A DNA stretch of 47,757 nt from a virus (IMGVR_UViG_2529292906_000010); one strand, 5' to 3'. Counted from the first letter of the stretch, positions 9,547-30,287 are shown. The notes: generated by a model from the sequence alone, not told the origin. A program made the numbers and translations.

Positions 9547-9795
9547 TTACTTCTGGTTGTATTGAGCCTTGAGTAACTCAAAAGATTTTGTCAGCACTTC
9601 TTTCAATGACATATCCATTGAGCTGGCGAACGTTTTGTACTCGCGTTTAAATTCAGGGTCGACGTTAAACGCCATTTGTGCCCCACCTGATTTGGTTCTG
9701 GCTGGCGTTTCAGTCGGGTCGAAAACCTGCGGTTGTTCGATCGATGGCGGTACGCCTTTGCTGTTCTTCTTTGGTGGTTTTGATGGTGCGGCCAT
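9547..9795 (-). CDS. ParG-like centromere-binding protein (probable ribbon-helix-helix)
   Basis: 82 aa; Pro/Lys-rich N-terminal tail then short structured C-terminus; directly downstream of parA; AGAGAGGA RBS. Confidence 0.5.
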   Translation of the reverse strand: MAAPSKPPKKNSKGVPPSIEQPQVFDPTETPARTKSGGAQMAFNVDPEFKREYKTFASSMDMSLKEVLTKSFELLKAQYNQK

Positions 9796-9807
9796 GTGTA
9801 TCCTCTC

Positions 9808-9840
9808 TTATATAAATCTATAAAACTATAATTATATATT
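9808..9840. repeat. TATAATTATA palindrome site D (between parA and parG-like gene)
   Basis: Core at 9827-9836; reverse complement carries ATAGTTTTATAGATTTATATAA flank as in leader copies. Confidence 0.5.
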
Positions 9841-10507
9841 ACGCGGCAGTAGTCAGAGCCTCAAGCTGGTTGATAATCCCCTGAATAACGTCGTCTGCTT
9901 TTTTGCGTGGCGCAACGTATGAGCACTCAATGAGGCTTAAGCCCTTATCCTGAGCTTTGCTCAGAGCTGGCTTGTGGGGAATGTACTTATCGACAACAAA
10001 GTATGGCGTATTAGCCAGGTACTCTTGGGCTTCAATATAGTCAGCTTCGTTTTCAGCCGCGCCGGAAAACACCATGCAAATTTTCTTGATTGGTACACCC
10101 TTTTTAACGATGCCGTGAGCTGTGTTAACGGTGGTTTCCAGGTCATCGGTAGAGAATCTGGTTGGCAAAATAACCATATCCAGAAATTCAGAGAGCTTCG
10201 GTACTGATTCAGATGCGTAGGCACCGCCATCAACGATAACCAGGTCGTATACTTCTGATTCGATGATTTTCTGGACTTGTGATGGCGTGCCGCACGGCTG
10301 CGCCGCGATTGCAGGTTCGATATTGTTGGCCATTCTGCGTTGTACCCAACGCGTTACCGTTCCGTTAAGCACATCCATATCGATCAGGCATACATTCCAG
10401 CCAGCCTTTGCATAAGCAACTGCTAAAGCACGAGCAATGGTTGATTTGGTTACGCCGCCTTTTCCGTTGAAAATACCTACAGATATAGTCATTTGTCGAG
10501 ACTCCAT
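9839..10507 (-). CDS. parA: partition ATPase ParA (ParA/MinD family, small type Ib)
   Basis: 222 aa; deviant Walker A GKGGVTKST near N-terminus. Confidence 0.85.
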   Translation of the reverse strand: MESRQMTISVGIFNGKGGVTKSTIARALAVAYAKAGWNVCLIDMDVLNGTVTRWVQRRMANNIEPAIAAQPCGTPSQVQKIIESEVYDLVIVDGGAYASESVPKLSEFLDMVILPTRFSTDDLETTVNTAHGIVKKGVPIKKICMVFSGAAENEADYIEAQEYLANTPYFVVDKYIPHKPALSKAQDKGLSLIECSYVAPRKKADDVIQGIINQLEALTTAA

Positions 10508-10512
10508 GCGTT

Positions 10513-10618
10513 TGATTATATAATTCTATAAATCTATATTTATAGAATGAGGTAAGCATAACCAACTTTTTGGCGGATGAAAAGTGTTTTATATAATTAT
10601 ATAAATCTATAATCATAT
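10513..10618. promoter_or_regulatory. par promoter/centromere-like region with two TATAATTATA-family sites
   Basis: TATAATTCTA at 10518-10527 and TATAATTATA at 10591-10600, directly upstream of parA. Confidence 0.4.
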
Positions 10619-10638
10619 AAGCGGGCGTTAGCCCGCTT
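10618..10638 (-). terminator. hairpin terminator
   Basis: GCGGGC-GTTA-GCCCGC stem after stop of gene 10643-11017. Confidence 0.45.
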
Positions 10639-10642
10639 TCAG

Positions 10643-11017
10643 TCAGAGGTCAGCTATCGTTGATATCAGTTGATTTGCTAGCTGTCGCTGTTTACGTGAG
10701 AGGGTTAGAGCAGCTTCTGAGCGGTCGCTAAGAGGGGTGTTTTCATCGAGAATCATGAGGCATACAGAAATAATAGCCCTGTTATATGCCATCAATGGCT
10801 GGCACAGCTTCGATATCGCTGGCACATCGTATTGTAAGGCCGTTTTGAGGCAGACTTTTTGTTCTGATGCCAGATGAAGGATAGATTCTATCCAGTCGAT
10901 ATCTTTCTCATTATCAATGAGTTGGCATAACATACACTCAATCGCTATGTTCAACGCTTGGATTTCGATTCCAGCAGTGATCAGAGTTTCGTTTTTATTG
11001 GCTGTATGTAATTCCAT
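10643..11017 (-). CDS. hypothetical protein
   Basis: 124-aa ORF downstream of the repressor gene. Confidence 0.5.
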   Translation of the reverse strand: MELHTANKNETLITAGIEIQALNIAIECMLCQLIDNEKDIDWIESILHLASEQKVCLKTALQYDVPAISKLCQPLMAYNRAIISVCLMILDENTPLSDRSEAALTLSRKQRQLANQLISTIADL

Positions 11018-11050
11018 GCGTAGCCTCTTTTATACTTTTTCATGTTGTCA

Positions 11051-11069
11051 AAACCACAAAGCGTGGTTT
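11051..11069. promoter_or_regulatory. operator-like palindrome AAACCAC-N5-GTGGTTT (may also act as terminator)
   Basis: AAACCACAAAGCGTGGTTT followed by T-run. Confidence 0.35.
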
Positions 11070-11109
11070 TTTTGAGCGTAGAAATGCACGGCTTTCGCCG
11101 TGCTGTGTA

Positions 11110-11772
11110 TCATAACCAGTTGACAACACTAACTACGCGGCCAAGAACTTTATAACGCTTAAATTCCTCGTTATTCAGATGCTTAGTGTTCATTTCAGCA
11201 TCCCTTTCGGTTGACAGCATAACAGCATTGTCACCCGGTATGACTCTACAGTGCCTCAAAACAACCAGGCCATTTCTGTCTTCAAGGGCATAGATCCCCT
11301 CATGAACCTCTGTATCGTCTGTATTAATCAGGACTTGGGAGCCAGGGGATATTGTTGGTGACATTAGCTTTAGCTCATCGTTGCTCTGGAGAACAGACAG
11401 AGACGATGGGTTGATGTTCTTGCTTCGTAGAATCTCCTGTTCTATCGCCAGCACTGGCTTTTCTCCGGCGTGCGATGCTATGTCATTTTTTATAGCTACA
11501 AGCCCAGGAATAACAGGTGCGTTAGTATTCTGGGGTGGGAACGGGTTATCTGTTAAGCACGCGATATAAGGCGCTGATGCTTTCAGGGCGTGCGCGATTT
11601 TCTTGATGGCAGGTATAGATGGTTGTCTTAATCCGGCCTCATAGTTCTGCAAGGTGCTTAAGCCTATTCCAGTGACTTGCTGGAGATCTCCGGCAGTCAT
11701 GCCGGATTGTTTCCGTAGAGTCTGAATGCGCAGACCTATTTCTTTCTTGATGTTCTCGTCGTTGCTTTTCAT
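11110..11772 (-). CDS. CI-type repressor (N-terminal HTH, C-terminal S24/LexA-like domain)
   Basis: 220 aa; XRE HTH (LQQVTGIGLSTLQNYEAG); C-terminus has MSP and KVLGRVV motifs at the positions of the LexA-type Ser/Lys dyad; divergent from Cro-like gene. Confidence 0.75.
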   Translation of the reverse strand: MKSNDENIKKEIGLRIQTLRKQSGMTAGDLQQVTGIGLSTLQNYEAGLRQPSIPAIKKIAHALKASAPYIACLTDNPFPPQNTNAPVIPGLVAIKNDIASHAGEKPVLAIEQEILRSKNINPSSLSVLQSNDELKLMSPTISPGSQVLINTDDTEVHEGIYALEDRNGLVVLRHCRVIPGDNAVMLSTERDAEMNTKHLNNEEFKRYKVLGRVVSVVNWL

Positions 11773-11807
11773 TTCTCATCAATCGTGAATGGGGGGTTAT
11801 TTATACA

Positions 11808-11929
11808 TTACCACATTTAGTGGTTTTCACACGGTAAGACGAGAGGTAGACCACAAATAGAAGGTTATTTTTGTTTCCCCATTGAAAAACTCACGATTTG
11901 TGGTTTTAATACCACATATCGTGGTTTAA
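11808..11929. promoter_or_regulatory. immunity operator/promoter region (OR-like) between repressor and Cro-like gene
   Basis: Palindromes ACCACATTTAGTGGT (11810-11824) and ACCACATATCGTGGT (11911-11925) plus half-sites at 11850 and 11891; TTGAAA -35-like at 11882. Confidence 0.5.
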
Positions 11930-11943
11930 CTGGAGTTAGTTAA

Positions 11944-12438
11944 ATGACCTTTCAGGAGTGGGTTGATGAAAATGGAGGCCAAATTGGTGTTGCCAGAAAG
12001 TTTGGCTTTACGTCATCACTGATTGGTGCCTGGTATCGCTTCGAGAGATTCCCTCGTGCGGATAACCTGACGCTGCTGGTGGCGTATTCGGAAGGCCGGA
12101 TTAATGTCCAGCAATGGGCGGCAGATTTTGCCGAACGTCAGCGCCAGCGTAGCGATGGCACATCGGTTCGGCAGAACAAGATCAAAGGGAATCTCCCTGT
12201 TAACTGCTTATCAAGGCTGAAAGCGGTTTTCTCTGAGCTGGGGATACCTGCGGAGCGTTGCAATCTACGCGGTCCGCGATTCATTGCTCGCTGGAAACAC
12301 TCACACGTAACCGTTTCAGAGGTTCGTGATGCGATTGCCGTGCTGGAGTTTAAGAATAAAGATTCCAGCGATATCGAGCTGATTCATAAGGAGATTAGCA
12401 ACGCCCGGCGTTCAGCACTTGGGAGGCTTGAGGAATGA
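11944..12438 (+). CDS. Cro/YdaS-like HTH regulator
   Basis: 164 aa; N-terminal Cro-like segment (GGQIGVARKFGFTSSLIGAWY); divergent from repressor. Confidence 0.5.
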   Translation: MTFQEWVDENGGQIGVARKFGFTSSLIGAWYRFERFPRADNLTLLVAYSEGRINVQQWAADFAERQRQRSDGTSVRQNKIKGNLPVNCLSRLKAVFSELGIPAERCNLRGPRFIARWKHSHVTVSEVRDAIAVLEFKNKDSSDIELIHKEISNARRSALGRLEE

Positions 12439-12950
12439 TGATTCTGGCCTTCTTTGGTGATAATCACCAGATTCAATCGCAGGTGGTGCACTACCTTGAT
12501 CAAACGATTAAAGGATTTGTTATCGATCATATTGATAACGATAGTAAACGTCTATCTGTAGAGCAGAAAATTGGACGTGTGCAGCGACTGGTTGCCAGCC
12601 GTAACAGACGTGACGCCGTAACAGTCGTCACGGGGATAACGGAGGTCATGGAGTACCAGATGTTGCTGCATCGTGGAGCTGTTTTCTGCGTTCTTCCTGG
12701 CATTCTGCCAGCAATTCTTGCTCGTGGTTTTGTCCCTATTGATGAGTCGTTTTTATATGTAACTCCAAGCCGTTCCCTTCTGGATTCGGAGGCGAAACGT
12801 CGCATTTATATGCTGCCGGACGAGGCATTTTCTGAATGTTACCGCCGTGAAATGAGGTTGGGTAAACGAGATGTGTCTGTTTCTCGTGATGGCAGGTTTT
12901 TAAGCAGCCGCACGGTGAAAAGCACCTGGAATGACGGGGGCCATCAATGA
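12435..12950 (+). CDS. hypothetical protein
   Basis: 171-aa ORF, overlapping start. Confidence 0.5.
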   Translation: MMILAFFGDNHQIQSQVVHYLDQTIKGFVIDHIDNDSKRLSVEQKIGRVQRLVASRNRRDAVTVVTGITEVMEYQMLLHRGAVFCVLPGILPAILARGFVPIDESFLYVTPSRSLLDSEAKRRIYMLPDEAFSECYRREMRLGKRDVSVSRDGRFLSSRTVKSTWNDGGHQ

Positions 12951-21039: not shown

Positions 21040-21115
21040 GGCCCCTTAGCTTAGTGGTTAGAGCAGGCGACTCATAATCGCACGGTCATCGGTTCAAATC
21101 CGGTAGGGGCCACCA
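21040..21115 (+). tRNA. tRNA with CAU anticodon (Met or Ile2/lysidine type)
   Basis: 76-nt cloverleaf: acceptor GGCCCCT/AGGGGCC, anticodon loop CTCATAA, T-loop GGTTCAAATCC, 3' CCA; recalled as close to E. coli tRNA-Ile2. Confidence 0.8.
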
Positions 21116-21423: not shown

Positions 21424-22011
21424 ATGGAGGCAATTGCATTGTTTAATCTGATTTATGCAGATCCCCCCTGGGAATACAAAGATAAGTGTAAGGATGGGAA
21501 TCGTGGAGCTGGTTTTAAGTATCCAACGATGAAAGCTGAGGATATTGCTCGTATTCCTGTCTGGCAGCTTGCTAATCCTGAATCGTGTTTGTTGGCCATG
21601 TGGTGGGTTCCGACTCAGCCAGAAGAAGCGTTGCTGGTGGTGAAAGCATGGGGATTCAGGCTTATGACCATGAAGGGCTTCACATGGAACAAATGTGGTA
21701 GCCGACAACCAGATAAGCTGGTGATGGGGATGGGGCATATGACTCGTGCAAACAGTGAAGATTGCTTGTTTGCGGTAAAAGGCAAATTGCCGACCCGCCT
21801 TGATGCGGGGATCATTCAGTCGTTTACATCGCCTCGTCTGGAGCATTCTCGGAAGCCTGATGTGGTTCGTGACAAGCTGGTAAGGCTGTTAGGTGATGTT
21901 CCTCGTATTGAGCTGTTTGCTCGCGGTGATTTACCTGATGGTTGGCATGGCTGGGGCAACCAGTGCAATGGAGGTATCCAGTTGCATGATGCTCTCTGGC
22001 AAGTGGCATAG
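21424..22011 (+). CDS. orphan N6-adenine DNA methyltransferase, MT-A70 family
   Basis: DPPW motif (IYADPPWEY) near N-terminus; no adjacent restriction endonuclease. Confidence 0.75.
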   Translation: MEAIALFNLIYADPPWEYKDKCKDGNRGAGFKYPTMKAEDIARIPVWQLANPESCLLAMWWVPTQPEEALLVVKAWGFRLMTMKGFTWNKCGSRQPDKLVMGMGHMTRANSEDCLFAVKGKLPTRLDAGIIQSFTSPRLEHSRKPDVVRDKLVRLLGDVPRIELFARGDLPDGWHGWGNQCNGGIQLHDALWQVA

Positions 22012-23308: not shown

Positions 23309-23336
23309 AGCCTCGCGTGTCGCGGGGCTTTTATTT
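23309..23336 (+). terminator. rho-independent terminator
   Basis: CCTCGCG-TGT-CGCGGGG + T-rich tail. Confidence 0.5.
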
Positions 23337-23348
23337 TCAGGTGATGTT

Positions 23349-23759
23349 ATGGAAAAGAAAGAAGATAAACCGATTGCCATTGGTGCAGAGTCTGTTCCGT
23401 TTAAGTTTGAATTATCCCAACTGGTAACAATGCGTATCAGTGAAGAGTGGGGAGAAGTTCAAGCCCGTGCTCAGTATGCAAATGGCGAAAACCAGTATTT
23501 GATTCACTATCAGGCGGCTGATGGTCGTGCTACCACAGAGTGGTTCGGTGAATCGATGTTGATTGCGATGGAAGATGATCGTTATCCAGGCTGCCCTGTT
23601 TTTGCCTGTGTTGATTTGCCAGAAGGCGCGGTACTTGAAGACGACAAAGAAGAATGCTCGTCTGATGGCGAACTTGTCATTACTGGAATCGTTGATGGTA
23701 AGCCGGAATACTCTCGTATTGAGGTAAATAACGGCCGCATCCGTTTGATCCCTGCGTAA
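23349..23759 (+). CDS. hypothetical protein
   Basis: 136-aa acidic ORF. Confidence 0.5.
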   Translation: MEKKEDKPIAIGAESVPFKFELSQLVTMRISEEWGEVQARAQYANGENQYLIHYQAADGRATTEWFGESMLIAMEDDRYPGCPVFACVDLPEGAVLEDDKEECSSDGELVITGIVDGKPEYSRIEVNNGRIRLIPA

Positions 23760-23993: not shown

Positions 23994-24617
23994 ATGACAA
24001 AACATCTTAATGTGGTTTCTTTACCACTTTCTGTGTTGATTGGTTATGAAAAGAACGCTCGCACACACTCCGTGGAGCAGGTAGATCAGATTATTGCCAG
24101 CATACAGGAGTACGGATGGACTAATCCGATCCTGATAGACGAGAACAACGTTGTAATTGCTGGTCATGGTCGAATTGCTGCGGCCACTCAGTTGGGGATG
24201 GATGATGTTCCCTGCATTGTTCTGGCTGGGCTAACGGAGAATCAGAAGAAGGCATATCGTCTGGCCGACAACCGTATTCCGCTGAATGCTGGTTGGGATG
24301 AAGAGTTGTTAAGCGCGGAGCTTGCAGATCTTGCGGCCGATGATTTTGCTCTGGACTCAATTGGTTTTACTCAGCGCGAACTGGATAACTTATTGAGTGC
24401 GGCGGTCTACGATGACACAGAGGGTATGGATATCCCATTTGAGAAGGATGAGGCCAAATCAGGCGTAAAAGTTCAGTACCTGTCATTTGGAGGTCATAAA
24501 ATCCCGGCAACGGATGAGGAAGCGGATCGTTTTGACTGCGCGGTGTCTCGTTATGTTGATGATAATGGCAGCTATATCGGATTTGTATCCGCATTGCTGG
24601 CTGGGGAGGTGTGCTGA
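23994..24617 (+). CDS. ParB/Srx-like nuclease-domain protein
   Basis: 207 aa; IAGHGRIAA box; paralogue of 27284-27874. Confidence 0.6.
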   Translation: MTKHLNVVSLPLSVLIGYEKNARTHSVEQVDQIIASIQEYGWTNPILIDENNVVIAGHGRIAAATQLGMDDVPCIVLAGLTENQKKAYRLADNRIPLNAGWDEELLSAELADLAADDFALDSIGFTQRELDNLLSAAVYDDTEGMDIPFEKDEAKSGVKVQYLSFGGHKIPATDEEADRFDCAVSRYVDDNGSYIGFVSALLAGEVC

Positions 24618-25990
24618 TGCTTCACCTCAATTACGACATAACGCACCTACGCGGCGCGGAATATAACCCGCGTTTTATCGGTGAGGATGATCTTGCGAGG
24701 CTGGCGGAAAGCGTCAGGGAGCTGGGGCTTGTGAAGCCATTGATAGTGCGCGGCGATTTGCTGGTGGCGGGACACCAAAGGACGAAGGCGCTACGTAAGT
24801 TGGGAATAACGCGTGCTGCGGTGTATGTGTTGCCCTGTGAAACGACGGTATACGACGAAGTACGGTTTAACCAACTGCATAACGGAACGGATTTTGATAG
24901 CGGAGATGAGCGTTGCAGGGTGTCCGGTCTGGAAGATAAGCATGGTTTTGTTCAGGTATCGGCAAGCCAGATCTCAGGCAATATGCGCGCGAAAATGGCA
25001 TATGTTCGAAAGAACATAGCGGAACTGGTTATCAAGTATGGTCCGTGGGGTGGTTGTGTTGCTACTCAGTCTGGTGAGGTTATTCACTGTGCTCAGTATG
25101 CATTAGCAGCGAAAATGACGCGCACACCGCTAACGGTGTTTGTGATCCCTGATGTTGAGAAGGAAAAATACCAAAGTTATCTGAATAAAACTTATGGTGT
25201 ATTTGAGTATTCTCATCTGGAGAAAACAACATACATCCAGACGTATGCGCAGCTTATGCGGTTGCGTAATGGTGGCAGCCTGAAATCAAATCTGTATGAG
25301 TCGTTGATCCTCCCGATCGTTGCCAAGACGCCAAGAGGAATTGATTTTGGTTCGGGGCAGGGAGACTACGCGCGAATGCTCAGGGCAAAGGGATATAACC
25401 TGCATGATCTTGAGCTTTTTCGCCGTAAGGGCGCTGGAAACACTCTGGATAGGGCTGCAACAAACCGAATGATTGATACGCTGGTGGACGACTTAAAAAC
25501 GCGAGGGCGTTACGACTACGTGATTTGCGATAGCGTTTTGAACTCGGTCGATAGTGTCGAGGCTGAATGGTCCGTTCTGACGGTTCTGAAAGGCCTGTGT
25601 AAAGCTGGTGGGTCAATATTCTTTTCTGGTCGTAGCCGTGGAGAGCTGGAAACAGTCCTGAAGCAAACACAAGCGGCGAGTTCCAAAAGCCGGCTTTATT
25701 TTATTGATCATAACGGTTTTACCGCGTTGTACCGGAAGGGGCACTGGTTTTACCAGAAGTTTCACTCTGATGATGAAGTGAAGCAGTTGTGTCGTGTACA
25801 TGGTTTCAGGATTAAGCGGTCAATATTCAACTGTAAGAGCTGGTATTTGCACGTCATTAACGATGATTCCCTTAGTTGGGCGAGTCTGGAGAAAGCTGTT
25901 CGTTTTGAGTTTGAGTTGCCGTTGCCTGGTGGTTCAACAATCGGACGATCTGATGATGTGCTGGCGGCTTTCCGGCCGTTGATTAAGTAG
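24611..25990 (+). CDS. ParB/Srx-like N-terminal domain fused to class I SAM-dependent methyltransferase domain
   Basis: 459 aa; VAGHQRTKA box; motif I GIDFGSGQGDYARML; no DPPY/NPPY motif. Confidence 0.6.
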   Translation: MLMLHLNYDITHLRGAEYNPRFIGEDDLARLAESVRELGLVKPLIVRGDLLVAGHQRTKALRKLGITRAAVYVLPCETTVYDEVRFNQLHNGTDFDSGDERCRVSGLEDKHGFVQVSASQISGNMRAKMAYVRKNIAELVIKYGPWGGCVATQSGEVIHCAQYALAAKMTRTPLTVFVIPDVEKEKYQSYLNKTYGVFEYSHLEKTTYIQTYAQLMRLRNGGSLKSNLYESLILPIVAKTPRGIDFGSGQGDYARMLRAKGYNLHDLELFRRKGAGNTLDRAATNRMIDTLVDDLKTRGRYDYVICDSVLNSVDSVEAEWSVLTVLKGLCKAGGSIFFSGRSRGELETVLKQTQAASSKSRLYFIDHNGFTALYRKGHWFYQKFHSDDEVKQLCRVHGFRIKRSIFNCKSWYLHVINDDSLSWASLEKAVRFEFELPLPGGSTIGRSDDVLAAFRPLIK

Positions 25991-26006
25991 TGTGTAGGAG
26001 GCGCTG

Positions 26007-26726
26007 GTGGCTGACAGAATTGAGATAAAGATGGATTTTTCTTCTCAGGATATTCAACGACAACTCCAGCGCCTTGAAGAACGCGAATTGCCGTTCGCAA
26101 TGGCGCTTGCGGCAACCAGAACGGCAAAGGCTTCTCAGGCTGCGATTAAGAATGAAATTAATCGGGTATTTGACAGGCCCACGCCGTGGATTCAGAACTC
26201 TACTTACGTTTTGGCCGCAAAGAAGAGTGATCCTACAGCCATTGTGTATGCTCGTGAATGGGGAGGAACGCCAGCCCCTGTAACGTTGACTCCGCAAATT
26301 GAAGGTGGCCAACGACAGTACAAACGCTCAGAAGGGGCGCTAAGGGCTGGTGGATATTTGCCTAACGGCTGGCAGCTTGCTCCTGGTCCCGGCGCAAAGC
26401 TGGACAAATACGGGAATATTTCGCGGGGGCAATTACAGAAGGTCTTATCTGGCCTAAGAGTTCAGCGAGATGCGCATCAAAATCGCCGTCAGGGCAAGCC
26501 TACGGAGTTTTTTGTTGTTCGACCTGGTACAGGTAACCCGCTTCAACCAGGCGTCTGGCAGCGCGTTGGGCGGCGTCCTACGTTGATCCTTACGTTTATC
26601 CAGCAACCTAACTATTCACAGCGTCTTGATTGGCATGGCGTGGCGCTGCGTGCTGGTGAGGATGCGTTTGCTGATGAAGTCACAAAGGCTATTGATGACA
26701 TTCTTTCTAAGACCTTCTCTCGTTAA
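26007..26726 (+). CDS. hypothetical protein
   Basis: 239-aa ORF with GTG start. Confidence 0.5.
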   Translation: MADRIEIKMDFSSQDIQRQLQRLEERELPFAMALAATRTAKASQAAIKNEINRVFDRPTPWIQNSTYVLAAKKSDPTAIVYAREWGGTPAPVTLTPQIEGGQRQYKRSEGALRAGGYLPNGWQLAPGPGAKLDKYGNISRGQLQKVLSGLRVQRDAHQNRRQGKPTEFFVVRPGTGNPLQPGVWQRVGRRPTLILTFIQQPNYSQRLDWHGVALRAGEDAFADEVTKAIDDILSKTFSR

Positions 26727-27283
26727 TCATCGTGTGGTTGATGGTGTTGTTATGCAGAGTGTATTCACTGTGTTCTGTAGCGTCGCTCGCTGGCTGTCTG
26801 TGGGGGAGCACGAGCATCGTTTCATCGTCCGGCAGAATTGGGTCCTTCTGGCCAAAAGCGTTGGATGCGGGTCATTCGAACCCCGATGTTCGGCTAGCTA
26901 AACGTGAAAAAAGTTAGGTTAAAAGTTGCGGTAAAAGAAATTTACTCATCTCATTGAAAAATATCGGGAAAACGTGATTTTTTGCTGTATTTGTGCTGGT
27001 AAAAAGAAAGTAGGAAATTTTCTTTTAGATCATCAAGATACGCGCAGATCTTTAACCAATGTGATGTTGTTCTGATAAAAATCGTTATAAATCATGTAAA
27101 TACATCCAATCTTTTAACCAAAACACCATCGCAAGATCCTTTTTACTTATAAAAACTTAATAAAATCAGATAATTATGCTGGTTTGTGTGATTTTTTATG
27201 AGTAAAAAGATCGTCATTTTTCTCTTTTAGTATCAATAAGTTAAACAGTTTTCTTTAACCTGTTGTGTTATGGCGGTTAAAAA

Positions 27284-27874
27284 ATGGCTCTAAAAATCGA
27301 ATATTTACCAGTCGGTAAGCTGCTCAGATATGCCAAAAATTCACGGACTCATTCAGATGAGCAAGTTGAACAGTTGGTGAACAGTATCCGTGAGTTCGGT
27401 TTCACTAATCCTGTGCTGATCGATGAAAAGAATGAACTGATTGCGGGGCATGGTCGGCTTGCAGCAGCCGAAATTCTGGAAATGGATAAAGTTCCGGCGA
27501 TTCGGTTGAGTAACCTTTCTGAAAAACAGAAGAAGGCTTACAGGATTGCAGATAACAAGCTGGCCTTAAATGCTGGTTGGGATATGCAGCTTCTGGCCGA
27601 AGAAGTCAAAGAGTTAATGGATGATGATTTTGATATTGATCTGCTTGGGTTTAATGATGCAGAGCTTGACGAAATGTTAAGCGATGAACAGCCGCAGGAA
27701 GAAGACGATAATTCTTCCCCTGTTGTTCAAATTAAGTACCTGGCTATTGATAAAGAACGTATTCCCGCGACGGATATGGAAATTGCATTGTTGCTGGATG
27801 TTTATCGTCAGTACCACGATGCGCATGAAACGCATGAGGGATTTGTTCAGTATCTTGCTAATGGTTGCAAGTAA
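27284..27874 (+). CDS. ParB/Srx-like nuclease-domain protein
   Basis: 196 aa; IAGHGRLAAA box; immediately upstream of terminase small subunit. Confidence 0.6.
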   Translation: MALKIEYLPVGKLLRYAKNSRTHSDEQVEQLVNSIREFGFTNPVLIDEKNELIAGHGRLAAAEILEMDKVPAIRLSNLSEKQKKAYRIADNKLALNAGWDMQLLAEEVKELMDDDFDIDLLGFNDAELDEMLSDEQPQEEDDNSSPVVQIKYLAIDKERIPATDMEIALLLDVYRQYHDAHETHEGFVQYLANGCK

Positions 27875-28425
27875 TGGCCATCGTCAGTAAGTCAGAGTTT
27901 GCCCGCCGGAAAGGTATTTCTCCGGCAATGGTTACGAAGCTCTGTCGTTCCGGTCGCATTCCAGTGCTGAAAAGCGGCAAGCTGGATTTTGATAAAGCCA
28001 GTGCGGCTTATGAAGCGAGCCGACAGGTTGGTCGTGAGGTATCTGCTGAAAATGGAAAAAGAGGGCATGGGATATCTTCGGAACAACCAGAGTTACCCGC
28101 TGATGATGTCGGATTAGCTGGTGGTACTTCCGGTGTTGCGGTGCAATTCAACAAGGCTAAGACCGCAGAAAAAATTTATCAGGCAAAGCTGAAACGCCTT
28201 GAATTTGAAGAAAAGGAAGGCTCTCTCATCGCTAAAGATACGGTCAGGGATGATGCATTTCTGGCAGCTAATGAATTGCGTAGCCGCTTATTTAGTATTG
28301 CTCCAAGAGCAGCTCCCCGTTGTGAAGGCAAAACAGCCAGGGAGATCGAACGCATTATTGAAGACGAGATTAATTTTGCGCTTCAGGCGCTCCAGGAATC
28401 CCGATTTATTAAGCAGGAAGAATAA
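27865..28425 (+). CDS. terminase small subunit
   Basis: N-terminal HTH (SKSEFARRKGISPAMVTKL); directly upstream of terminase large subunit; start may be ATG 27874. Confidence 0.6.
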   Translation: MQVMAIVSKSEFARRKGISPAMVTKLCRSGRIPVLKSGKLDFDKASAAYEASRQVGREVSAENGKRGHGISSEQPELPADDVGLAGGTSGVAVQFNKAKTAEKIYQAKLKRLEFEEKEGSLIAKDTVRDDAFLAANELRSRLFSIAPRAAPRCEGKTAREIERIIEDEINFALQALQESRFIKQEE

Positions 28426-28430
28426 ACCTC

Positions 28431-30287
28431 ATGGGCGAAACAGTATGGAGCACCGCTTTTTTCCGTGCGCTTCGCCCTAAATCACGGCTAACTGTTTCCG
28501 AATGGGCTGATAAGTATCGTCATGTAGCGCCGGGAACGTCTCCAGAGCCAGGGCCGTGGCGTACAAGCCGAGTGCCATATTTGCGTGAACCAATGGATGT
28601 TATTGGTGACGCTGATACAGAAACAGTAGTGATGCAATGTAGCTCGCAAATTGGTAAATCCGAATTACAGCTAAATGTTATGGGTTACTTTGCAGATCAG
28701 GAGCCATCTCCTCAGTTGATGATTTATCCAACGGTAGAGGCGGCTGAGGCTTTTTCAAAGGAGCGTATTGATCCGACGTTCAAATATTCCCCTGGTTTGA
28801 AACACAAGCTGCATGAAGGAAAAGAGGGGCGCGGTGCAGCCAAAAAGTCCAGCACGACTATACGTATGAAGCATTACGCTGGTGGATATATAGCACTTGT
28901 TGGTGCTAATTCCCCAGCAGGTCTTGCATCCAGGCCAATTCGAATACTGTTAGCTGATGAGATTGATCGTTACGGTGTGACGCAGGAGGGCGACCCACTA
29001 AAACTAGGTATTCAGCGTACTACCAACTTTCATAATCGTAAGAAAGTTTTTGTTTCTACTCCTGTTTTTGAGGAAACGAGCAAAATCCACAAGTGGTTTA
29101 AGCTCTCCGATCAGCGTTACTACCATGTTCCTTGCCCATGTTGTGGCACCATGCAGGTGATGAAATGGTCGCAAGTCAGATGGGATAAGAGCGATTCAGG
29201 TGAGGCGTTACCGGAAACGGCCAGATATGAGTGCTGTGAGTGCGGCGGGATTATGCGCGGATCTGGTAAACCAGACGTTGATTGGTTGGCAAAGGGGGTA
29301 TGGATAGCTGAACATACTGGAGTTAAAGGTATTGTTGGTTTTCATATTAACAGTCTTTACTCCCCGTGGGTTGCATTGTCAGAGCTGGTTGAAGAATTTA
29401 CGGAAGCAACCAGAAACCGCGATAAAAATGGATTAATGGAGTTTATTAACCTTAAGCTGGGTGAGCCATGGAAAGAGGATGCTAAAGACGATATCGATCC
29501 TGAATACTTGTTGCAACGCAGAATAAGGTTTGAAGAGTTTTTACCAGATGATGTTTTATTGTTAAGTGCTGGTGTTGACGTACAGGACACGTATTTAGTT
29601 TGTGAATTGGTCGGTTGGGGAAAAGGTAAGGAGTCATGGGGGATAGAATATAAAATATTCCCAGGTGATCCCGCACAAGATGTTGTCTGGAAACAACTTG
29701 ATGAATACTTACTCCGTAGCTGGTCATTCCGTGACGGTCGAAAATTACAGATTTCTTCTGTTTGTATTGACTCTGGTGGGCATTTTACGACAGAGGTATA
29801 TCGCTTCACTAAGCTGAGAGAATCAAGGCGAATATACTCTATCAGGGGGCGTGGTGGGGTAGGTTTACCATTTATAGGAAAGCCAAGTAATAATAACCGT
29901 GTGGGTGCTATGTTGTTTAATTTGGGGGTTGATGATGGTAAAGGGACCATCATGGCAAGAATTAAACTACATGATCCTGGTCCTGGTTATATGCATTTCC
30001 CATTAGATTCTGACAGAGGATATGATACCGAATACTTTAAAGGATTATTATCAGAGAAAAAAATATTTGAATATAAAAATGGGCAGACAAAAGAAAAGTG
30101 GGTGAAAGTCTACGAGCGTAACGAGCCTCTTGATTGCCGTAACTATGCAACTGCCGCGATGGAAATTCTGAACCCTAATTTTAACTGGCTTGCCGAACAG
30201 GAAATGCGAGGTAATGTGTATGTGCAGAACTCGTCAGGTATACGTAGAAGACGCCGTAGAGTTATAAGTAAAGGCGTAAACATATAG
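28431..30287 (+). CDS. terminase large subunit (lambda gpA family)
   Basis: 618 aa; position and length typical of gpA-type terminase. Confidence 0.85.
   Translation: MGETVWSTAFFRALRPKSRLTVSEWADKYRHVAPGTSPEPGPWRTSRVPYLREPMDVIGDADTETVVMQCSSQIGKSELQLNVMGYFADQEPSPQLMIYPTVEAAEAFSKERIDPTFKYSPGLKHKLHEGKEGRGAAKKSSTTIRMKHYAGGYIALVGANSPAGLASRPIRILLADEIDRYGVTQEGDPLKLGIQRTTNFHNRKKVFVSTPVFEETSKIHKWFKLSDQRYYHVPCPCCGTMQVMKWSQVRWDKSDSGEALPETARYECCECGGIMRGSGKPDVDWLAKGVWIAEHTGVKGIVGFHINSLYSPWVALSELVEEFTEATRNRDKNGLMEFINLKLGEPWKEDAKDDIDPEYLLQRRIRFEEFLPDDVLLLSAGVDVQDTYLVCELVGWGKGKESWGIEYKIFPGDPAQDVVWKQLDEYLLRSWSFRDGRKLQISSVCIDSGGHFTTEVYRFTKLRESRRIYSIRGRGGVGLPFIGKPSNNNRVGAMLFNLGVDDGKGTIMARIKLHDPGPGYMHFPLDSDRGYDTEYFKGLLSEKKIFEYKNGQTKEKWVKVYERNEPLDCRNYATAAMEILNPNFNWLAEQEMRGNVYVQNSSGIRRRRRRVISKGVNI

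Follow-up and report, generated by a model that had tools for sequence, protein, structure and literature searches.

A ParB–methyltransferase fusion, its small ParB partner and a probable cos site beside the terminase genes of an Escherichia coli phage-plasmid

ParB-like genes beside terminase genes are among the commonest unexplained features of phage genomes, and what such genes do there is the question raised by the viral DNA IMGVR_UViG_2529292906_000010. In this stretch of 47,757 nucleotides (nt), referred to at its full length as the window, a cluster at 23,994 to 27,874 consists of a small ParB-like protein (ParB1), a ParB–methyltransferase fusion, a protein of 239 amino acids (aa; gp239) and a second small ParB-like protein (ParB3), followed by the small (TerS) and large (TerL) terminase subunits. 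The region is best explained as a ParB–Tls DNA-modification locus of a myovirus that packages from a cohesive-end site (cos) and lives as an E. coli plasmid. We hypothesize, at a rough probability of 0.45, that the acidic ParB and the basic fusion form a complex, gated by nucleoside triphosphate (NTP), that methylates replicated phage DNA before or during packaging and protects it in the next host. Experiments of 2025–2026 were the first to establish the ParB fold as a general NTP switch and to show that activation of a DNA-modifying enzyme by a phage ParB is possible. The element described here provides a tractable E. coli/Yersinia system, available both as a plasmid carried by the reference strain ATCC 25922 and in isolates that form plaques, in which to ask whether a ParB switch also drives a methyltransferase, what substrate is methylated, and whether duplication of a ParB has led to its being wired to the small terminase.

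This 48-kb element is a phage-plasmid of E. coli and probably a myovirus that packages from cos. The 48.5-kb circular plasmid of E. coli ATCC 25922 matches the region at 99.4% identity, and its record lists genes for RepA and ParA, for a contractile tail of the P2 type and for a head module of the HK97 type. The element was present in 74 of 5,426 complete E. coli genomes, with 80 of its 83 occurrences on plasmids, and near-identical phage isolates have been deposited (Yersinia phages vB_YpM_39, vB_YpM_41 and vB_YpM_44, and Escherichia phage vB_EcoM-613R2).

The fusion and the small ParB upstream of it

The four open reading frames (ORFs) of the cluster were found on the plus strand where the initial annotation had placed them (Table 1), except that the start of the fusion has been corrected. 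The 459-aa ORF begins at 24611, and the ATG at 24617 is the likelier start because it is used by RefSeq and most homologs and overlaps the stop codon of ParB1. The fusion has a full-length match to PHROG 5475 (E 3e-265), a family listed as of unknown function. Two Pfam domains were identified in the 459-aa ORF. Residues 9-70 match ParB_N, at 24.3 bits (E 3e-5) under the 26.3-bit cut-off, and residues 238-400 match Methyltransf_23 at 31.5 bits (E 1.7e-7), over the cut-off of 27. The protein had first been read as an N-terminal ParB/Srx domain joined to a class I S-adenosylmethionine (SAM) methyltransferase with a motif I, with structure prediction proposed as a check, and this reading was borne out by domain, PHROG and fold searches. 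Both folds were also found in an AlphaFold2 model built with 41 homologs (predicted local distance difference test score, pLDDT, 93.8; predicted template modeling score, pTM, 0.89). The N-terminal domain has the beta-alpha-beta-beta-alpha-beta-alpha order of the ParB/Srx fold and matches ParB_N, and the catalytic domain has a Rossmann-like fold, a glycine-rich motif I and an acidic residue ending strand 2.

In the model, the middle domain of the fusion is a second ParB/Srx fold, one that is seen at the level of the fold and was missed by sequence searches. Profile comparison of the N-terminal and middle domains detected no sequence similarity between them. The cluster had been described as having three ParB/Srx-domain proteins; the three genes are real, but the folds number four when this cryptic, predicted domain is counted. 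Among the 41 fusions, Box I (YNPR; Y16, N17, P18, R19), Box II (AGHQR; A51, G52, H53, Q54, R55) and the Box III region (E81, F84-N85-Q86, H88-N89) of the N-terminal domain are invariant. The N-x-R of Box I, the arginine of Box II and the asparagine of Box III point, at residue level, to a conserved NTP pocket. The cryptic domain lacks the Box II arginine, having IHCAQY instead, and has invariant residues of its own (H157, Q160, Y161, W144, G145, N122, R131). The "nuclease" label that the ParB-like proteins had been given reflects an annotation tradition and no feature observed here. The residues conserved in them are those that make up, in the ParB CTPase fold, its three NTP-pocket boxes.

The fusion is a widespread, rigidly conserved phage enzyme, and this phage-plasmid is convenient for resolving its function. 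Approximately 306 representatives of 50%-identity clusters were recovered at E <= 1e-30 from 1.84 billion proteins, almost all of them 450-490 aa long and with full-length matches, and the family reaches phages of Proteobacteria, Bacteroides and Brochothrix. Mean column identity across distant hosts was 58% (41 sequences).

The genes around the fusion are similarly arranged in other phages. IMG/VR held 69 loci with a full-length fusion, 55 with enough upstream sequence and 54 with 4 kb downstream for comparison. A small ParB gene was located at the first or second position upstream, on the same strand as the fusion, in 44 of the 55 loci (at the first position in 39), and a large ORF was located within 4 kb downstream in 47 of the 54. 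Pfam searches of 37 distinct downstream large ORFs identified 14 as GpA, 13 as Terminase_6, 3 as Terminase_3 and 2 as TerL_ATPase-type; most loci have a TerL gene in this interval. The small ParB and fusion pair was also found in a Bradyrhizobium prophage and a metagenomic phage, with fusions that are 45-55% identical, and it occurs in integrated prophages and in phages that are not plasmids. By comparison, ParB3 is confined to close relatives of the element, as is gp239 among the fusion-bearing loci, and a stand-alone MT-A70 DNA adenine methyltransferase gene (Table 1) is confined to the closest relatives. Since these three are lineage-restricted and the pair recurs, the unit is the small ParB with the fusion and not three ParB genes; it is conserved upstream of the terminase irrespective of terminase type. 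ParB3 is a duplicate specific to its lineage. We had considered the MT-A70 gene as a part of the conserved module and rejected it owing to its presence only in the closest relatives.

ParB1 and ParB3 are paralogs, as initially annotated (47% identity over 201 aa, E 8e-62), and both match the "ParB-like partition protein" family PHROG 620 (E 1e-73 and 5e-75, respectively). Against Pfam ParB_N, ParB1 is under the 26.3-bit gathering cut-off (E 9e-5, 22.9 bits) and ParB3 is over it (E 4e-8, 33.7 bits). In an alignment of 32 small ParBs adjoining fusions (ParB3 numbering), the N-terminal NTP-pocket domain has invariant N19, G55 and R58 and near-invariant D90 and N91. It is followed by a helical linker containing WD, a variable acidic stretch and a conserved C-terminal domain of ~45 aa in which E166 and G186 are invariant. 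That C-terminal domain had no significant match in a PDB profile search (best E 0.11) or a Pfam scan, and an early hunch from its sequence pattern, that it is a ribbon-helix-helix, gained no support from either search. Pfam at E <= 0.01 identified no helix-turn-helix (HTH) or canonical ParB C-terminal dimerisation domain, no DNA-binding domain was recognised in the small ParBs by Pfam and PDB profile searches, and scores against NCBIfam TIGR00180 were 16-40 bits, compared with a ParB cut-off of 58. Residues 1-150 of ParB1 and ParB3 are closest to the N-terminal module of ParB–DNA-methyltransferase fusions, with E values of 1e-50 to 1e-52 against PHROG 498 and 1e-37 to 1e-40 against PADLOC MTase_II, and they match 402 phage records, mostly annotated as DNA methylases.

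The stop codon of ParB1 overlaps the ATG of the fusion (TGATG), with a Shine-Dalgarno sequence, GGGGAGG, at 24603-24609, and the stop of ParB3 overlaps the start codon of TerS (TAATG). Such stop/start overlaps usually give translational coupling. The proteins concerned differ markedly in charge: the fusion (+12.6), gp239 (+11.7) and TerS (+3.6) are basic, and ParB1 (-20) and ParB3 (-19) are acidic. There are therefore two acidic paralogs in the cluster, each overlapping the start of a different basic partner. For ParB1 and the fusion, the overlap and opposite charges fit what would be expected of a stoichiometric acidic/basic pair.

In other phages the gene following the fusion was often observed to encode a Cys/His-rich protein of 132-175 aa (L021:1610-2038, L024:9189-9632, L008:2210-2641, L006:11419-11880 and 16 more). 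This protein has a near-invariant W, H-C, C and H and an invariant N78 and R131, a pattern suggesting that it might bind metal; it had no match in Pfam, PHROG or PDB. Its candidacy as a relative of gp239 was rejected (hhalign probability 0.1%), and it has no homolog anywhere in the window. In the Bradyrhizobium prophage (L006/L007, 13054-19196), genes of the Amidoligase_2, GGACT/AIG2 and N6_Mtase/MTS-like types were observed between the fusion and the terminase. These gene types are associated with DNA base hypermodification, and the fusion of that prophage sits in a richer modification locus.

A probable cos site within the cluster

The cluster adjoins the terminase genes, as had been noted, and the gene order is ParB1, fusion, gp239, cos, ParB3, TerS, TerL. 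Evidence for a cos site that probably splits the ParB cluster in two comes from the ends of phage records. These records are independent. The virion-derived sequences of vB_YpM_39 and vB_YpM_41 break at 26869|26870 and begin with GGTCATTCGAAC at 26870; that of vB_YpM_44 breaks 12 nt away, at 26881|26882, and ends in GGTCATTCGAAC. This 12-mer has a single occurrence in the window. The cohesive ends of lambda are also 12 nt long, and TerL here is of the lambda GpA type. Comparison with relatives whose fusion proteins are 90% and 70% identical (the 70% relative being L016) showed that an island at 26840-26925 is the only strongly conserved part of the gap between gp239 and ParB3 in L013, L014 and L016. 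The centre of the island is GGGTCATTCG(A/T)ACCCCG, and the rest of the gap has largely diverged. We also sought viral contigs in IMG/VR that end at cos, and all 4 contigs containing the site read through it, which is to be expected because they are plasmid or prophage assemblies. A cos at this position would place ParB1, the fusion and gp239 last on the linear virion DNA and ParB3, TerS and TerL first, so that the ParB cluster would be contiguous only on circular or concatemeric DNA. The initial annotation missed this site, which lies in the 26727-27283 gap, as it did the ParB–Tls identity of the locus, the cryptic domain and the ParB1 and fusion unit.

The AT-rich stretch to the right of cos contains an array of repeated heptamers. 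Five of the 14 copies of TTTAACC in the window are located there, compared with a segment-shuffle expectation of 0.11, and none of 2000 shuffles reached five. In the corresponding gap of L016 (L016:10289-10777) the heptamer is GTTAACC instead, and this gap holds 10 of the 13 copies in that locus. A joint change of this kind suggests repeated sites that are co-evolving with their binder, and the array is a candidate set of cosB-like protein-binding sites. The likeliest binder would be TerS, which is the most diverged of six proteins compared with L016 (57% identical), with ParB3 as the other candidate. A deletion of ~90 bp was observed in this region of vB_YpM_44 (L003; window ~27011-27097), with the loss of one TTTAACC site. 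As vB_YpM_44 forms plaques, that site is dispensable. Searches of the cos gap found no RNA family in Rfam, and promoter and terminator scans were at or below chance.

The protein on the left of cos, gp239, had been listed as unknown, and it does belong to a family, PHROG 1924, although the "minor tail protein" label of that family looks doubtful. No match to gp239 was found in Pfam, NCBIfam or PDB. Homologs of gp239 were observed <=~250 bp from the genome end in many Pseudomonas siphophages (F10, MD8, JBD68, LPPA, CF55b and others). This position as last gene before the end recurs in unrelated phages.

Table 1. Positions of features in the window (pI, isoelectric point).
Feature	Position	Strand	Properties
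ParB1	23994..24617	+	207 aa; pI 4.3; net charge -20
ParB–methyltransferase fusion	24617..25990	+	457 aa; three domains; pI 9.2
Fusion, ParB N-domain	24617-24898		Residues 1-94
Fusion, cryptic ParB/Srx fold (predicted)	24899-25216		Residues 95-200
Fusion, class I SAM methyltransferase	25325-25987		Residues 237-457
gp239	26007..26726	+	239 aa; pI 10.2; basic; PHROG 1924, E 9e-97; last gene before cos
Probable cosN	26870..26881	.	12-nt cohesive end GGTCATTCGAAC; record breaks and conserved island
TTTAACC array (candidate binding sites)	26917..27281		Five heptamers: 26917 (-), 27051 (+), 27113 (+), 27254 (+), 27275 (-); AT-rich stretch, cosN to ParB3
ParB3	27284..27874	+	196 aa; pI 4.5; net charge -19; first gene after cos
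TerS	27874..28425	+	Small terminase subunit; PHROG 57, E 6e-42
TerL	28431..30287	+	Lambda GpA type, ATPase and own nuclease domain; Pfam GpA_ATPase E 5e-76, GpA_nuclease E 5e-84
ParA	9839-10507	-	222 aa; only ParA; ~14 kb from ParB cluster, opposite strand
MT-A70 DNA adenine methyltransferase	21424-22011		Stand-alone; Pfam E 3e-23; DPPW motif; 2 kb upstream of ParB1

Related systems and the possible substrate of the fusion

Iyer, Zhang, Burroughs and Aravind are said to have defined ParB–Tls loci in Nucleic Acids Research (NAR) in 2013. [quoted passage not shown] The gene order here is of this kind, as the enzyme gene lies between a ParB-like gene and the TerL gene. As in those descriptions, there is a ParB-like gene upstream, a terminase downstream and, between them, a modification-type enzyme that can be fused to ParB. 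The enzyme itself is different from those described there, being a Methyltransf_23-type class I methyltransferase and not an N6A/N4C or C5 DNA methyltransferase. The locus also goes beyond those descriptions in its cryptic second ParB/Srx fold, its two stand-alone ParB paralogs and the presence of a probable cos within it.

Fusions joining the ParB CTPase fold with Methyltransf_23 (PF13489) were listed as phage-enriched by Kaljevic et al. (PNAS 2025; PMC12704722), and the fusion shares their Pfam architecture and prophage enrichment. [quoted passage not shown] Its main text, in which the words "tandem" and "terminase" are absent, gives no account of a second or tandem ParB domain, of a small ParB as obligatory neighbour or of a terminase linkage, and its text supplements do not mention PF13489 or the fusion protein. 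A possible parallel is provided by 5mYOX176/ParB176 (PNAS 2026; PMC13229309), in which a stand-alone phage ParB is needed for the activity of a neighbouring thymine dioxygenase on double-stranded DNA. The small ParBs resemble ParB176 in standing alone beside an enzyme and in having an NTP pocket and a C-terminal domain with no obvious DNA-binding domain, and their adjacency to the fusion in 44 of 55 loci is the architecture of a 5mYOX/ParB-type system. Unlike in that system, the partner is a methyltransferase with a ParB domain of its own and not a TET/JBP dioxygenase, and the phage is without hypermodification genes.

Two other groups of proteins can be compared. ParB1 and ParB3 are homologous in residues 1-150 to the ParB–N6/N4 DNA methyltransferase fusions (PHROG 498, PADLOC MTase_II, B. 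cereus Bce_0392). Unlike these, they have no methyltransferase domain and end in the short conserved C-terminal domain, and the catalytic domain of the fusion belongs to a different methyltransferase family. Like the canonical ParBs Spo0J, Noc and KorB, the cluster proteins have the N-terminal fold and three NTP-pocket boxes, but they have no HTH, canonical C-terminal domain or adjacent parA, and their Box II is GHxR rather than GERR. That M.EcoGIX is a ParB fusion was considered and is not supported by the paper on it. Both the type of locus and the architecture of the fusion have been published before, and RefSeq contains identical proteins. Within the published accounts compared, what appears to be new is the cryptic second ParB/Srx fold, the probable cos within the locus, the regular pairing of the fusion with a small, acidic ParB whose gene overlaps its start, and the overlap of a second paralog with the gene for TerS.

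The analysis shows the identities of the genes and domains, their folds, the synteny, the overlapping stop and start codons, the charges and the conserved NTP-pocket residues; we infer a ParB1–fusion complex, its gating by NTP, a DNA substrate and a protective role. Late in infection, ParB1 and the fusion would assemble on newly replicated phage DNA, probably via their ParB domains; with NTP as the gate, the fusion would methylate that DNA before or during packaging, and the DNA would then be protected in the next host. ParB3 may tie a switch of this kind to the complex that packages DNA at cos. Anti-restriction through modification of phage DNA, which the initial annotation had also proposed, is our best guess at the role, and it is the published prediction for such loci (PMC6536676, PMC4738411). 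Several findings weigh against this hypothesis. The catalytic domain is outside all established DNA methyltransferase families. As had been annotated, the fusion lacks DPPY/NPPY, and in fact there is no [DNS]PP[YFWH] motif and no PP dipeptide in the whole protein, motif IV being CDSVLNSVD. C5-type PC/ENV motifs are absent from the methyltransferase domain (the sole PC dipeptide, LPCE, is in the ParB domain), and Pfam and fold searches of the fusion found no C5 methyltransferase families. The high conservation of the fusion differs from the diversifying target recognition of many restriction-evading methylases. The slot upstream of the terminase could be a common insertion slot with no functional link. 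The methylome of an E. coli ATCC 25922 lysogen contains only motifs assigned to other enzymes (PMC12679398), and this evidence is weak because late genes are expected to be silent in a lysogen.

The main weakness of a DNA substrate lies in the catalytic domain, which is more like small-molecule and RNA methyltransferases than like DNA methyltransferases. The serious rival explanation, which we consider less probable, is that the fusion acts on something other than DNA: an RNA, for instance a tRNA; a small molecule such as a nucleotide; or a protein, for example one of packaging or of the host nucleoid. Its two ParB/Srx folds would then make up a module of the NTP-binding or kinase-like sort found in sulfiredoxin, SerK and SbnI, used in taking over the host or in counter-defence. 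In structure, the catalytic domain lies nearest to small-molecule, tRNA and cap methyltransferases; the architecture of the family is uniform and its conservation high, which points to one fixed substrate, and the already-assigned motifs of the ATCC 25922 lysogen (PMC12679398) also speak for this explanation. Against it, the small ParBs that partner the fusions share homology with the N-terminal modules of genuine DNA methyltransferase fusions, and the locus is where phage DNA-modification genes cluster (PMC6536676, PMC4738411). The strongly basic charge of the fusion fits a nucleic acid, and it does not separate DNA from RNA. We consider it rather doubtful that the fusion is the catalytic subunit of an unrecognised class of DNA methyltransferase, with a scaffold that lacks (D/N/S)PP(Y/F/W), a pair of NTP-gated ParB folds that loads it or switches it on, and dependence on an acidic ParB acting in trans. 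Such an enzyme, on a small-molecule/RNA-type class I scaffold, could at packaging leave on phage DNA a mark that is missed by standard methylome callers (methylation of N7-guanine, of N3-cytosine or of the backbone, for example). With DNA as its substrate, the fusion would bring a new catalytic class to the modification of phage DNA; with any other substrate, it would show that the "ParB–Tls" slot is not reserved for DNA-modification enzymes.

The position of the cluster next to the terminase had been taken to suggest a role in packaging-site processing, that is, that the ParB-like proteins are nucleases that process cos or are needed by the terminase to recognise or cut it. ParB3 is the first gene after cos, its stop overlaps the start of TerS, the repeated-site array is just upstream of it, and the ParB domain in a B. 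cereus methylase fusion is reported, as cited in PMC5512222, to nick DNA non-specifically. We nevertheless regard this role as unlikely: TerL has a complete GpA nuclease domain of its own, the ParB and fusion pair accompanies four unrelated terminase families, ParB3 is limited to this lineage, and the small ParBs are highly acidic with no recognisable DNA-binding domain. The repeated sites have a natural candidate binder in TerS, given its divergence in L016. The domains of the initial annotation were thus right and its suggestion of anti-restriction is plausible, whereas its nuclease and cos-processing ideas are unsupported. It is more improbable still, to a degree that we would give it little weight, that the ParB-like proteins are centromere-binding partition proteins of the plasmid prophage. 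Records in RefSeq and of phages do label the genes ParB or "plasmid partitioning protein", and the element is a circular plasmid in nearly all of its E. coli occurrences (80 of 83). Against this, the proteins have no canonical ParB HTH or C-terminal dimerisation domain, NCBIfam ParB scores of 30-40 bits are far under the cut-off of 58, the pair is also present in integrated prophages and non-plasmid phages, and the genes lie in the late, packaging part of the genome. The only ParA is 14 kb away on the other strand and is followed by an 82-aa ORF without a family match (window 9547-10507, minus strand); the two look like a partition cassette belonging to the plasmid itself, complete with a small protein that binds the centromere, and the existence of this separate cassette makes it unlikely that the ParB-like genes of the late region serve partition.

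Other observations on the phage-plasmid

Two papers, the vB_YpM_HQ103 paper and an enterotoxigenic E. coli (ETEC) phage-plasmid paper, do not mention the genes of the ParB cluster. ParB–MT-A70 fusions exist in other phages (PHROG 21315), and ParB1 or ParB3 might also serve the MT-A70 enzyme of this element. A tRNA gene at 21040-21112 (Rfam, 65.8 bits) is labelled tRNA-Ile in RefSeq's record of the plasmid, whereas the record of the Yersinia phage has tRNA-Met, a conflict that suggests a CAU anticodon of ambiguous identity. A strong terminator-like hairpin (23309-23329; 9 pairs, 7 of them G-C, and a T run) was observed just upstream of an ORF at 23349-23759. It separates the ParB cluster from the small ORFs that come after the MT-A70 gene, and may act in the late operon as a regulated terminator. 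In L001 (NZ_CP009073.1), the region at 10150-12887 contains two opposed tail-fibre assembly genes and a truncated tail-fibre gene, with an adjacent gene for a "recombinase family protein", and resembles a Gin/Cin-type segment whose inversion would alter host range.

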